Positions 46,101 to 48,866 of a stretch of 64,000 nucleotides of DNA are shown one piece after another. The stretch covers positions 576,471 to 640,470 of the forward strand of contig JAXLQX010000001.1 in assembly GCA_046331405.1 (NCBI GenBank). The letters are read 5' to 3'. Below the pieces are notes generated by a model. The model did not search any database. It saw only the letters and a list, made by a program, of their open reading frames with translations, and had not been told where the DNA came from. The position numbers were made by a program, and so were the translations under genes. Origin of the DNA: Thermoanaerobaculia bacterium. GTDB taxonomy: Bacteria; Acidobacteriota; Thermoanaerobaculia; Multivoradales; SZUA-115. Position 1 is the stretch's first letter; the number at the start of each line of letters is the position of its first letter.

Positions 46101-48866
46101 TTCCTGGTGGAGCTCGCCGAGCTGCCCCTCACCCCGAACGGCAAGCTGGACCGCGCCGCCTTGCCCCGCCCCGAGGCTCCCCGACCGCGGGCGACGACCG
46201 AGCGAGGGCCCCTCGAGGAGCTTCTGGTGGCGATGACCGAGGAGGTTCTCGAGCTCGAGGGCGTGGCGCTCGACGACAACTTCTTCGCCCTCGGCGGCCA
46301 CTCCTTGACCGCCGCCCGGCTGACCTCGCGGCTGCGCGAGAGCCTGAAAGTGGAGCTGCCGATCTCGGCCGTCTTCGAGGCGGAGAGCCTCGCGACCCTC
46401 GCCCGCTCGCTGCGCGACCGCCTGGCCGGGCGGACGGCCGGGGAGCTGCCACCCCTCGTCCGCCGGAGCGAGAGGGCGAAGGCTCCGCTCTCCTTCGCCC
46501 AGGAGAGGCTGTGGGTGGCCGAGCAGATGGAAGCCGAGGAGGGGGCCTACAACTTGCCGGGGGCGGCGCTGCTTTCCGGCCCCCTCGAGGTGGAAGCCCT
46601 CGGCCGGGCGCTGGCCAAGGTGGTGGCGCGCCACGAGGTGCTGCGCTCCGCGTTCGTGGAGGGCGAGGACGGCCCGCTGCAGCAGGTGGCAGGAGGAGCC
46701 CGCCTGGCCCCACCACCGGTGGTGGATCTCCGCGGCCTGGCAGCCGCCGACGGCGAGCGGGAGCGCCTGCGCCTGACCGACCGCGAAGGCGCGCGCGGGT
46801 TCCGTCTCGAGCAGCCGCCGCTCCTGCGCGCCCTGCTGCTGCGCCTGGGCTCCGAGCGCCACCAGCTGGTGCTCACTTTCCACCATCTGGTGGCCGACGG
46901 CGGCTCGATGGCGGTGCTGCTGCGAGAGCTCTCCGCCTGCTACCAGGGCGCTGCCGAGGCCCTGCCCGAGCTGCCCGTGCAGTTCGGCGATTTCGCGGCC
47001 TGGCAGCGCCGCGCCACGGCCACGACCGCCCTCGAGGCCCAGCTCGAATACTGGCGCCGGCAGCTGGCCGGTGCGCCGCTGCTCGAGCTGCCCCTCGACC
47101 GGCCCCGGCAGGCCGGTCGCAGCCTGCTCGGAGGCAGCATCGAGCGCCTGCTGCCCGGCGAGCGGCTGGCCGCCGTCAAGAACCTCGCTCGCCGCGAGGG
47201 GGCCACGCTGTTCATGACGCTGCTGGCCGCCTTCTACGCCACGCTCCATCGCACCTCCGGCCAGCGCGACCTGGTGCTGGGTACCGACCTCGCCCATCGC
47301 AACCACCGGGCCCTCGAGGGGCTGATCGGCTTCTTCGTCGACCATCCGGTACTGCGGGTGAAGGTCGAGCCGGGCAAGCCGGCGCGCGAGCTGCTCCAGG
47401 CCGTCAAGCGCACCACCCTGGAGGCCTACGCCCGCCAGGACGTCCCCTTCGAGCACCTGGTCGAGCAGCTCGAGCCCGAGCGCCTGCCCGGCGTGACGCC
47501 CCTCTTCCAGGTGCTCTTCGTGCTCCAGGAGCCCCTCGCCGAAGAAATCCACCTGGGCTCCTGTCGCCTCGAGCCGCTGGCCGTCGACGGCGGTCGGGTG
47601 AAATTCGACCTGGTGGCGATGGCCCAGGAGGAGCCCGCGGGCCTCCGGCTGACCCTGCGCTACGCCCGCTCGTTGTTCGACGCGTCCACGCTCGAACGGC
47701 TCGCCCGCGACTTCGACGCGGTGCTCGCCGAACTCTGCGCCAACCCCGATCGCCCCCTCGAGCAGTTCAGCCTGCCCAGCCAGGCGGAAGGAGACCCCAG
47801 CGCCATGGAAGCCCCCCCGTCCCCCTCTTCGCCCACCGGCCCCCGCGCCATGCGGCGCCGCGCGGTGGCGTTGGATGCGGTCGAGCCGGTGCGCACGCGC
47901 ACCGTGACCGGCGGCGCCACCCGCGCCTTCGTCTTCGAGCCCGAGAGCCCCGATGTCGATCTGCCCGGCTGGGTGGCGAGTGCGCGGGCCGAAATCGATG
48001 CCCGCCTGGCCGAGGCCGGCGCCCTCCTGTTCCGCGGCTTCCCTCTCGCCTCGGTGAAGGACTTCGAGCGCGTCGCAACGGCTCTTTGCCCCAGCCTCTA
48101 CGATGGCTATGGCGACCTGCCTCGGGCCGATCTCGGGGACCGCATCTACCAGTCCACGCCCTACCCCGAAGATCTGCGCATCCTCTTCCACAACGAGAGC
48201 TCGCACCTCGACAGCTGGCCCTGGCACCAGATGTTCTTCTGCGTGCAGCCTTCGGCCACCGGCGGCGAGACGCCGATCACCGATTGTCGGGAGGTCTACC
48301 GCCAGATGGACCCGGCCCTCTGCCAGCGCTTCGAGGAGCAGGGGCTGCTCTACGTGAGGAACTTCATCGCCGGAGTCGAGCCGAGCTGGCAGAGCTTCTT
48401 CAAGACCGACGACCGTGACCGGGTGGCCGAGATCTGCCGCGAGTCCCGGCTGGAGATCGAATGGCAGGGCGAGGACGGGTTGCGCACCAAAAAGCGCAGC
48501 CCGGCGGTGATCCGCCATCCGGTGAGCGGCGAGAAGTTGTTCTTCAACCAGATCCAGGCCCACCACGTCTCCTGCCTGGACCCGGCGACCCGCGAATCCC
48601 TCGAGCAGATGGTGAGCGAAGCGGAGCTGCCGAGAAACGTATATTTCGGCGACGGCAGCCCGATCCCCGACGCCACGGTGATGGAGCTGATCGATCTCTA
48701 CGACCGCCTCTCGCTGGTCTTCCCCTGGCAGAAGGGCGATCTCGTGGTGGTCGACAACATGCTGATCGCCCACGCCCGCAACTCCTTCACCGGGCCCCGC
48801 AAGATCACGGTCGCGATGGGTGACATGGTCTCCCTCGCGCAGCTCGACCCGGGTCGAGGAGCCTGA
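43158..48866 (+). CDS. NRPS subunit 1: C-A-PCP-C, then a C-terminal TauD/TfdA-like Fe(II)/2OG dioxygenase domain
   Basis: C1 HHIAADLWS. A LAYILFTSGSTGEPKGV, YRTGDLG, KIRGFRIEPGEIE. PCP FFALGGHSLTAARL. C2 HHLVADGGS. The last ~320 aa carry LFHNESSHLD...IAHARNSF (HxE...H...R), a TauD/SyrP-like signature. The track ORF 40614-48866 is an artefactual N-terminal extension. Confidence 0.85.
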   Translation: MTQAGSALSGLSLAEKRALLARLLREREQAEKDFPLSFGQRAWWFLDQLDPANASHLIVFAARLASPLDHAAFARCLARLSERHEILRTTYRERDGEPRQRLRSGPGLALTVVAAEELSETSFRQALEQAARSPFDLRRGPPCRLALWRRPGNQRVLLLAVHHIAADLWSLALLLSELAELYAAELAGRPARLAALTRRYVDYAASEAERLSSPAGERLWRYWQEQLGGELPRLALPTDRPRPPQLSDRGASWALPIDAACTGSLRALAREQGTTLFAVLLAAFQLLLGRSSGQRQLLVGTLLASGRASAELGGVVGFFDNPVALRGDLAAAGTFLDLLDSARRTVLAALEHQSYPFSLLVERLKPQRERNRAPIFQTMLILQRPQLAAMTELLALASGAPGARASLGGLRLEGIALDRGSSTALAGQLDLVLTVAELGEELLATFQYPPDLFDATTVARLGGHFRNLLAGVPGVAAAPLERLRELSPAERWQLVAEWNDVAVARRPTTLAELVAAGVAEHPARLALVDAAESVSYAELWRRSGALAARLAQRGVGPEVRVGIRAGRSAARLVAVLAVLRAGGAYVPLDPLHPAERTARMVLLGEVRLVLSDSEPPSGALPPGLPWLELGGALEAAPSAPPAGSCALPEALAYILFTSGSTGEPKGVMIEHAAAANTVLDINQRFAIGPEDRVLAVSSLGFDLSVYDLFGPLAAGGAVVVPPPTPTPDPATWLAAMVRHGVTVWNSAPALLEMLEIHLEAGGAELPQSLRLVMLSGDWIGLRLPEQARRGRPSRQVVSLGGATEASIWSILFEVGEVDPSWSSIPYGRPMENQPFHVLDRRFEPVPIGVTGELYIAGLGLARGYAASPARTAERFLPDPHGPEGSRLYRTGDLGRRRSDGTIEFLGRADHQLKIRGFRIEPGEIEAALRSEPRVREALVVARRDLGGGAQLVAYYTASGKLEAELLGDRLLRLLPDYMVPGFLVELAELPLTPNGKLDRAALPRPEAPRPRATTERGPLEELLVAMTEEVLELEGVALDDNFFALGGHSLTAARLTSRLRESLKVELPISAVFEAESLATLARSLRDRLAGRTAGELPPLVRRSERAKAPLSFAQERLWVAEQMEAEEGAYNLPGAALLSGPLEVEALGRALAKVVARHEVLRSAFVEGEDGPLQQVAGGARLAPPPVVDLRGLAAADGERERLRLTDREGARGFRLEQPPLLRALLLRLGSERHQLVLTFHHLVADGGSMAVLLRELSACYQGAAEALPELPVQFGDFAAWQRRATATTALEAQLEYWRRQLAGAPLLELPLDRPRQAGRSLLGGSIERLLPGERLAAVKNLARREGATLFMTLLAAFYATLHRTSGQRDLVLGTDLAHRNHRALEGLIGFFVDHPVLRVKVEPGKPARELLQAVKRTTLEAYARQDVPFEHLVEQLEPERLPGVTPLFQVLFVLQEPLAEEIHLGSCRLEPLAVDGGRVKFDLVAMAQEEPAGLRLTLRYARSLFDASTLERLARDFDAVLAELCANPDRPLEQFSLPSQAEGDPSAMEAPPSPSSPTGPRAMRRRAVALDAVEPVRTRTVTGGATRAFVFEPESPDVDLPGWVASARAEIDARLAEAGALLFRGFPLASVKDFERVATALCPSLYDGYGDLPRADLGDRIYQSTPYPEDLRILFHNESSHLDSWPWHQMFFCVQPSATGGETPITDCREVYRQMDPALCQRFEEQGLLYVRNFIAGVEPSWQSFFKTDDRDRVAEICRESRLEIEWQGEDGLRTKKRSPAVIRHPVSGEKLFFNQIQAHHVSCLDPATRESLEQMVSEAELPRNVYFGDGSPIPDATVMELIDLYDRLSLVFPWQKGDLVVVDNMLIAHARNSFTGPRKITVAMGDMVSLAQLDPGRGA

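Follow-up and report, generated by a model that had tools for sequence, protein, structure and literature searches.

SyrP and other stand-alone aspartyl β-hydroxylases act on Asp tethered to a peptidyl carrier protein (PCP), and Reitz et al. reportedly defined, in 2019, a fused class (IbetaH_Asp), a stand-alone class (TbetaH_Asp) and a non-canonical interface domain of the condensation family. The action of the stand-alone enzymes, SyrP included, on carrier-tethered Asp is cited in a paper on potashchelin, whose biosynthetic protein PtcB has the order FAAL-ACP-C-TauD (C, condensation; A, adenylation) and is followed by a C-A(Asp)-PCP module, the TauD domain being assigned to the Asp of that adjacent module (PMC7100376). 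For cyanochelin B, the fused hydroxylase CcsFGH works with CcsI to make the L-threo-β-hydroxy-Asp at position 4 (PMC12628792), while in cyanochelin C biosynthesis CcsJK consists of a Gly module followed by a C domain and a TauD domain, and works with the product of the next gene, CcsL (bioRxiv 10.64898/2026.07.24.740629). An interface domain of the condensation superfamily accompanies such integrated hydroxylases (PMC12230676, PMC12971057), and antiSMASH 8 provides dedicated profiles for the fused Asp hydroxylases and for the interface domain (PMC12230676). Here we analyze a 64,000-nucleotide stretch from a Thermoanaerobaculia bacterium (GenBank assembly GCA_046331405.1, contig JAXLQX010000001.1, positions 576,471 to 640,470, forward strand; hereafter the window, ~70% G+C), in which a non-ribosomal peptide synthetase (NRPS) that we call NRPS1 ends in a TauD/TfdA-family domain. 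We consider it probable, by analogy with the systems above, that the C-terminal 350 residues of NRPS1 are an active Fe(II)/2-oxoglutarate (2OG) integrated aspartyl β-hydroxylase that acts in trans on the L-Asp-S-PCP of the next synthetase, NRPS2.

At the sequence level, the tail of NRPS1 is confirmed as a TauD/TfdA-family Fe(II)/2OG dioxygenase domain with a complete predicted metal and 2OG site. The Pfam TauD profile (PF02668) matches aa 1593-1886 (nt 47934-48815) with an E-value of 6.4e-45 and 154.6 bits against a cutoff of 27, and the isolated tail scores 159.4 bits against the same cutoff. The unit is homologous over its full length to stand-alone proteins of ~350 aa. The string FHNESSHLD begins at aa 1677 (nt 48186) and IAHARNSF at aa 1870 (nt 48765), and the closest sequence match in the Protein Data Bank (PDB) is Arabidopsis At3g21360 (1y0z, E 6.6e-37). 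Residues H1678, E1680, H1872 and R1881 align with the iron ligands H120, E122 and H313 and with R322 of 1y0z, and all four are invariant in homologue alignments of 16 and 34 sequences. Both strings had been picked out in an initial annotation of the sequence as resembling SyrP/KtzO-type β-hydroxylases. The ligands are those of H-N-E together with H1872, and the H-L-D of FHNESSHLD was ruled out as the metal motif by the 1y0z alignment, which places H-N-E on the ligand positions. A halogenase was likewise ruled out, as E1680 supplies a carboxylate ligand and leaves no HxA/G site; the site is accordingly of the hydroxylase type.

Structure prediction is consistent with this assignment. An AlphaFold2 model of the domain, built with 34 sequences, has a mean pLDDT of 90.2 and a pTM of 0.87, and predicts a double-stranded β-helix fold. 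Foldseek pairs the model with At3g21360 (E 1e-27, TM 0.76-0.83) and with TauD structures (~1e-15), followed by AtsK, RdpA, PvcB and ScoE-type enzymes. A PDB sequence search with the tail (E ≤ 0.01) returned At3g21360, the TauD-like 9yut and a weak third match, with no SyrP-, AsnO- or VioC-type structure, and NCBIfam gave only partial matches far below cutoffs (TMLD, BBOX and others), with no subfamily. The initial annotation thus stands in its proposal of a TauD/TfdA-like dioxygenase after a C domain, in its Ala/Pro/Ser-rich linker, in its coordinates to within ~100 nt, and in the kinship it drew to hydroxylases acting on carrier-tethered amino acids, as the relatives of the NRPS1 tail are such enzymes.

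The fused gene is one continuous reading frame. NRPS1 runs without interruption to a stop at 48866 from an ATG at 43158 that lies inside the stop of the upstream polyketide synthase (PKS) gene (ATGA); an automatic list of open reading frames (ORFs) opens this frame at 40614, and the segment 40614-43158 overlaps the PKS gene in another frame. Third-position GC follows one frame throughout 43101-48866, so that nothing points to a frameshift or a concealed stop codon at the C-TauD junction. Pfam locates two Condensation stretches in the product, the second at aa 1107-1544, along with AMP-binding (aa 518-864), AMP-binding_C (aa 923-996) and PP-binding (aa 1022-1083). The second C domain has an intact HHLVADG motif and scores 473 bits with a canonical-C HMM versus 216 bits with an interface HMM; presumably it carries out condensation for the Asp module, whose A-PCP is split off from it. 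The A-domain codes were extracted by reference to a GrsA segment, which gives DAWTIAAICK for GrsA and, for the modules of cyanochelin B, Phe, Gly and Asp; for Asp-type codes (positions 235-239), the A4 region was read directly and combined with MAFFT-based mapping. The NRPS1 code, DLYNMSLIWK, corresponds to Cys. Within 43158-46406 (+ strand), the A5 motif of this A domain is the variant SLGGATE, and the condensation domain that accompanies it (HHIAADL) is of the ordinary kind, not a cyclisation domain. One therefore expects the PKS chain to be followed by a Cys that keeps its free thiol or is tailored in a different way.

The putative partner of the hydroxylase is the Asp module on NRPS2. The Asp code of NRPS2 is of the same type as that at the cyanochelin B CcsI locus. 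The N-terminal domain of NRPS2 gives a weak Pfam Condensation match (85.6 bits), and SAPALGCDAES (nt 50846-50878) stands where HHxxxDG would be expected; its core, APALGCD, aligns with the LPALCAD of the C-like domains in two cyanobacterial loci (cyanochelin B and L. boryana). For a non-circular comparison, an interface HMM was built from 69 domains and a canonical-C HMM from 60, with window sequences in neither. The NRPS2 N-terminus scores 260.5 bits with the interface HMM versus 74.1 bits with the canonical-C HMM, whereas the five canonical C domains of the window score 161-252 and 372-503 bits, respectively. LP(A/S)LCAD-type motifs characterize the 69 interface domains, and the catalytic His pair occurs in none of them. 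The N-terminal domain of NRPS4, which has SSPLVAGPQS at the C3 position, behaves similarly (212.5 bits interface versus 61.2 bits canonical), and the hydroxylase may therefore have NRPS4 as a second client, giving a second hydroxylated residue further on, the A domain for which is outside the window.

The same three-part unit recurs widely. A one-genome-per-species scan yielded at least 590 related loci, the best 80 of which were annotated with small HMMs of our own making. C and TauD are fused in 62 of these 80, the next coding region is an interface-A-PCP in 52 of the 62 (most of the remainder being cut by contig ends), and all A codes recovered at that downstream position are Asp-type, with positions 4-10 reading K[IVL]GH[IV][GCI]K. 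An unfused TauD gene is followed by an interface-A-PCP gene in seven loci, four of which (L018, L031, L044, L062) have a C-ending gene in front. A C-terminal TauD domain after a C domain is the known layout of NRPS-integrated aspartyl β-hydroxylases. The initial annotation had called a cis-fused copy unusual and its placement after a downstream C domain odd; these judgments do not hold, since fusion is standard in potashchelin PtcB, cyanochelin B CcsFGH/CcsI, cyanochelin C and most of the surveyed loci, and the placement is that of the published clusters. Hosts of the related loci include Acidobacteriota, Cyanobacteria, Nitrospira, Chloroflexota (Herpetosiphonaceae), Myxococcota and Actinomycetes, among others, and the C-hydroxylase/interface-A(Asp)-PCP unit thereby reaches beyond Proteobacteria and Cyanobacteria into Acidobacteriota, Nitrospira, Chloroflexota, Myxococcota and actinomycetes. 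In some cases the hydroxylase forms one protein with the upstream C domain, in others it has a gene of its own.

Sequence identity separates two groups of TauD domains among all fetched loci, which we used as a surrogate for clades. The window domain is 45-54% identical to a mostly fused group (75 fused, 20 stand-alone) and 33-40% identical to a second, mostly stand-alone group, and is nearest to uncharacterised Acidobacteriota and cyanobacterial sequences. Many related clusters contain two hydroxylase units (L016, L018, L020, L021, L022, L028, L033, L036, L043 and others), one of the window clade and mostly fused, the other a stand-alone TauD 33-40% identical to it, each located before its own interface-A-PCP module. 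In L044, L054, L060, L072 and L085, a single hydroxylase precedes two consecutive interface-A-PCP-C proteins. In a large protein database, 103 of the top 120 matches are at most 400 aa long and the other 17 carry a C-domain fragment; among the N-termini inspected (top 60), most short matches begin with Met. No full-length NRPS appeared among those 120, and the search therefore shows that both forms are common but is not usable as a frequency estimate. A partial protein in nr (C + TauD, 589 aa; P0001), from a Thermoanaerobaculia bacterium and possibly from the same assembly, is 100% identical.

The seam itself suggests how the fusion arose. The Ala/Pro/Ser-rich linker SQAEGDPSAMEAPPSPSSPTGPRAM starts at aa 1541, and from nt 47805 onward the sequence is homologous to stand-alone proteins; at this position an in-frame ATG (M1550) is preceded by a Shine-Dalgarno-like AAGGAG hexamer 10 nt upstream. 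Stand-alone homologues open with "ME..." or "MRRKAVDL...", starts that align with AMEAPP...AMRRRAVALD of the window, whose linker here reads "...SAMEAPPSPSSPTGPRAMRRRAVALD...". In unfused loci such as L031 and L044, the TauD ORF begins straight after the stop of the upstream C-ending gene. The simplest reading is that the hydroxylase domain was a separate gene that became joined to the upstream C domain through loss of a stop codon, and the AAGGAG and ATG look like the fossil start of that gene. Internal initiation at the retained site would be possible.

By analogy with the characterised systems, we infer the following route. The interface domain of NRPS2 would dock the hydroxylase and present Asp-S-PCP; the TauD domain would then hydroxylate Cβ of this residue in trans, rather than the Cys of its own module; and the intact NRPS1 C domain that immediately precedes the hydroxylase would join the acyl-Cys chain to β-hydroxy-Asp-S-PCP. 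Fused hydroxylases are associated with an S β-carbon, and the stereochemistry of stand-alone aspartyl hydroxylases differs (erythro, or an R β-carbon) (PMC7100376, PMC12628792). The product would by this analogy be L-threo-β-hydroxy-Asp, as for the fused hydroxylases analysed so far.

A feature that distinguishes this locus is the gene between NRPS1 and NRPS2, which encodes a radical SAM protein (Pfam PF04055 and PF02310; TIGR04479 at 625.5 bits, cutoff 600). It starts 7 nt past the NRPS1 stop, leaving a 6-nt gap, and at its other end the stop codon and the NRPS2 start overlap (ATGA). In none of the 80 best genome loci of the TauD clade is there a radical SAM gene in the slot between C-TauD and interface-A-T. 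Homologues with 60-66% identity are abundant in soil metagenomes, nearly always within NRPS clusters, and a TauD domain or gene lies directly upstream in 11 soil-metagenome loci (L086, L087, L091, L109, L124, L125, L134, L136, L154, L155, L161). A complete interface-A(Asp)-PCP module follows in nine of these 11, with an alanine racemase gene intervening in L086; L124 retains a truncated interface domain only and L136 ends at a contig edge. L087 reproduces the gene order of the window from the PKS onward. The three-gene C-TauD/radical SAM/interface-A(Asp)-PCP unit recurs on these soil metagenome contigs, which are probably from Acidobacteriota. In a second context, comprising 14 loci (L088, L105, L106, L108, L110, L116, L122, L126, L132, L138, L140, L144, L145, L150), the radical SAM gene lies immediately before a module whose code, DLTK[IV]GEVGK, is Asn-type. 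The NRPS there opens with the C-terminal half of a condensation domain only (model positions ~190-452, ~250 aa), as checked in 12 of the 14 (all except L106 and L110). L088 additionally carries, just upstream, a PhyH-family gene and a gene for a single C domain. Together, the Asp context and the Asn context indicate that this radical SAM family tracks Asp and Asn modules. The insertion is a recurrent variant, undescribed in the literature searched, and the only non-standard feature of the unit. A search for 3-hydroxy-3-methyl-Asp and methyl-Asn found no occurrence of the amino-acid names, only nutrition papers on β-hydroxy-β-methylbutyrate, and a search combining PhpK, Acidobacteria and NRPS found no title or abstract describing the radical SAM arrangement.

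Several other explanations were weighed against hydroxylation of the NRPS2 Asp in trans. The C-A-PCP-C-TauD reading of the initial annotation implied action in cis on the residue of NRPS1 itself, either Cys-S-PCP or acyl-Cys, and the PCP at aa 1022-1083 is indeed the nearest in the polypeptide. We nonetheless regard cis action as highly improbable: an interface-A(Asp)-T follows in 52 of 62 fused loci, while the upstream A domains differ between loci (cyanochelin B has Phe/Gly, L. boryana Gly-like and the window Cys), which makes the downstream Asp module the conserved partner, and characterised clusters assign the fused domain to that downstream Asp (PMC7100376, PMC12628792, bioRxiv 10.64898/2026.07.24.740629). 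Of the initial interpretation as a whole, a carrier-directed hydroxylase survives, whereas the unusual fusion and placement, the own-module substrate (which carries a Cys code) and the H-L-D triad do not. A different outcome, such as halogenation, desaturation or C-C cleavage, or a non-Asp substrate, is unlikely, if slightly less so than cis action. Fe/2OG enzymes of the superfamily catalyse many reactions (PMC12006828), a two-enzyme route from Asp to aminomalonate in RiPPs (peptides made on the ribosome and modified after translation) starts with β-hydroxylation (PMC12186529), and the TauD clade of the window is uncharacterised. Opposing this, the E1680 carboxylate does not fit the halogenase-type HxA/G site, and the partner A code is Asp, identical in type to that of the β-hydroxy-Asp-yielding modules of cyanochelin (PMC12628792).

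An artefact of assembly or sequencing at the fusion, or an inactive relic, would mean that the hydroxylase is really separate or idle. The ribosome-binding-site-like AAGGAG and the ATG retained at the seam, aligned with stand-alone starts, and the abundance of stand-alone forms (103 of the top 120 protein matches) could be taken this way, but codon-position GC is continuous over the seam, an identical C+TauD protein exists in nr (though maybe from the same assembly), the same fusion is present in 62 of 80 related genome loci, which span many phyla, the catalytic residues are all invariant, and the structural model is confident. We judge such an artefact or relic very unlikely, and function would be kept even if the domains were unfused, given that in seven loci the order is the same and an independent TauD gene stands directly upstream of interface-A-PCP. 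From the position of the radical SAM gene, the same Asp may be modified a second time, which would extend hydroxylation in trans rather than replace it: TauD hydroxylation combined with C-methylation or another radical SAM reaction would give, for example, 3-hydroxy-3-methyl-Asp. The tight packing of the gene between NRPS1 and NRPS2, the 60-66% identical homologues filling the same slot in 11 metagenome loci, and the 14 further loci that place it before Asn-code modules speak for this possibility. Gene position is what supports it, however, the slot is empty in 80 of 80 genome loci, so that hydroxylation needs no radical SAM enzyme, and NRPS-associated B12-radical SAM enzymes are also known to methylate free SAM (PMC7277169, PMC12930334); the upstream Cys or another residue is a conceivable target. 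Twofold modification of the NRPS2 Asp is therefore a tentative proposal to which we assign a minority chance. A little more doubtful still is a two-enzyme tailoring station, in which the hydroxylase and a radical SAM methylase would act on the same carrier-bound Asp to give a doubly β-modified residue. If true, the interface domain would be a general docking platform for trans-acting tailoring enzymes and not an adaptor specific to hydroxylases. The radical SAM insertion is the only feature here that could lead to something new, and points to an undescribed modification at Asp/Asn modules.

A number of considerations weigh against our assignment of NRPS1 as an Asp hydroxylase acting in trans. 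The proposal for this locus is built on sequence and analogy, and the A-domain codes depend on the GrsA segment used as reference, though its controls came out right. Family membership was assigned with self-built HMMs and by comparison with characterised clusters, and the window TauD is only 45-55% identical to any relative retrieved except the partial nr copy P0001. The radical SAM gene interrupts the pair of C-TauD and interface-A-T, and chemistry on the Asp may exceed hydroxylation. Finally, the siderophore setting usual for the known hydroxylase family is not seen: of the window ORFs scanned with Pfam, none encodes a TonB receptor or another siderophore-uptake function. The cluster runs on past nt 64000.

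Table 1. Coordinates of features in the window (nucleotide positions, counted from the first letter of the 64,000-nt stretch).
Feature	Position	Strand	Evidence
MacB/FtsX permease (exporter)	29901-32390	+	Pfam
Ornithine cyclodeaminase-like gene	32435-33445	+	Pfam
Two ORFs without a Pfam match	33513-34517 and 34457-35716	+	
PKS, KS-AT-DH-ER-KR-ACP	36640-43161	+	Pfam
NRPS1, C-A-PCP-C-linker-TauD, 1902 aa	43158-48866	+	ORF, start codon, Pfam
Second NRPS1 condensation domain, intact HHLVADG	46476..47789	+	Pfam, motif, HMM
Fusion seam GCGGAAGGAGACCCCAGCGCCATG	47784..47807	+	Sequence
TauD/TfdA-family hydroxylase unit	47805..48863	+	Pfam envelope 47934-48815; homology, model
H1678-N-E1680 codons, HxE iron ligands	48189..48197	+	1y0z alignment, invariance
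H1872 (distal iron ligand) to R1881 (presumed 2OG-binding Arg) codons	48771..48800	+	1y0z alignment, invariance
B12-binding radical SAM gene, PhpK family	48873-50516	+	Pfam, TIGR04479
NRPS2, condensation-like domain-A-PCP	50513-53647	+	Pfam
NRPS2 N-terminal interface-type domain (non-catalytic, condensation-like)	50513..51787	+	Pfam, alignment, HMM, motif
NRPS2 adenylation domain, code DLTKVGHVGK (Asp)	51827..53287	+	Code extraction
NRPS2 PCP, presumed carrier of hydroxylated Asp	53342..53533	+	Pfam PP-binding aa 944-1007
NRPS3, C-A-PCP-C-A-PCP-sulfotransferase-C	53644-62427	+	Pfam
Sulfotransferase (ST) domain (Sulfotransfer_3), NRPS3 aa 2154-2369	~60103-60750	+	Pfam
NRPS4 N-terminus, continues past window	62428-63999	+	Pfam
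NRPS4 N-terminal interface-like domain without catalytic His	62428..63999	+	HMM, motif

The surrounding genes form a co-directional PKS-NRPS cluster on the + strand from ~29.9 kb through the end of the window (Table 1), and packing is tight downstream of NRPS1, with the 6-nt gap followed by ATGA and TTGA overlaps. A weak LolA-like protein is also encoded at the upstream edge of the cluster (window 29901-36680, + strand). Two more radical SAM genes lie upstream of the cluster (21630-23246, + strand; 27617-29641, - strand), one of them with a Radical_SAM_N2 N-terminal domain. At locus L003, a MacB/FtsX gene directly follows the stand-alone TauD, recalling the MacB/FtsX gene of the window.

NRPS3 carries two A domains, the first with a Gly-like code (DILQLGLVWK) and the second with a Tyr-like code (DASTVAAVGK); an exact-sequence look-up of this protein matched no record. 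Its ST domain is three modules downstream, placed as PCP-ST-C right after the PCP of the Tyr-like module, unlike the ACP-ST-TE arrangement of CurM-type terminal modules. From the predicted assembly order, two hydroxyls would be on the chain at the ST domain, the Asp β-hydroxyl, which the initial annotation put forward as a possible sulfotransferase acceptor, and the Tyr phenol, supplied by the module just before. The ST-C end of NRPS3 sits directly before the protein boundary to the interface-like domain of NRPS4. For the product, the main value of the fused hydroxylase is that it predicts a building block, most likely a β-hydroxy-Asp after acyl-Cys. β-Hydroxy-Asp binds metals, is photoreactive and typifies siderophores as well as some lipopeptides, and its prediction aids structure prediction for a PKS-NRPS cluster of the uncultured Thermoanaerobaculia (Acidobacteriota).

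Overall, the hydroxylase of the window is most probably of the known integrated kind, located in a little-explored phylum and in a PKS-NRPS cluster where no siderophore-uptake genes are visible. At3g21360, the nearest solved structure in both sequence and fold, shares its ligand positions but is a plant clavaminate-synthase-like protein outside any NRPS, with no carrier-protein context. SyrP and the other free-standing enzymes (TbetaH_Asp, SbetaH_Asp) have the same TauD-family fold and triad but are encoded by separate genes, whereas the window domain is fused in frame; SyrP-annotated matches on Burkholderia plasmids are ~41% identical to it. A tblastn search of plasmids gave 96 records, with many matches inside annotated NRPS genes, and the fused proteobacterial examples (Variovorax, Janthinobacterium, Eleftheria) are ~47-50% identical to the window TauD. 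Among the IbetaH_Asp systems, potashchelin PtcB, cupriachelin and taiwachelin are proteobacterial siderophores but, as in the window, place the hydroxylase after a C domain and the Asp module on the following protein.

The cyanobacterial systems offer the nearest parallels in architecture. In the published cyanochelin B cluster on plasmid 2 of Leptolyngbya sp. NIES-3755 (AP017310.1), the TauD domain is 48% identical over 88% of the query, and we annotate the locus as C-A(Phe)-T-C-A(Gly)-T-C-TauD followed by C-like-A(DLTKIGHVGK)-T, a layout matching the published Phe-Gly-β-hydroxy-Asp order. That locus differs in being a siderophore cluster of a cyanobacterium; the window, from a Thermoanaerobaculia metagenome-assembled genome (MAG), has PKS-Cys as its upstream module. 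It also lacks a radical SAM gene between its two NRPS genes; the direct adjacency of C-hydroxylase and interface-A-T genes seen in the cyanochelin type is broken in the window by the 1644-nt radical SAM gene. Common to both are a C-terminal TauD directly after C and a next gene encoding a His-less C-like domain (LPALCAD in cyanochelin B) followed by A(Asp)-PCP. On L. boryana pLBX, a 1897-aa C-A-T-C-TauD protein has the same architecture as the 1902-aa NRPS1 of the window, and is followed downstream by C-like (interface)-A(Asp)-T-TE.

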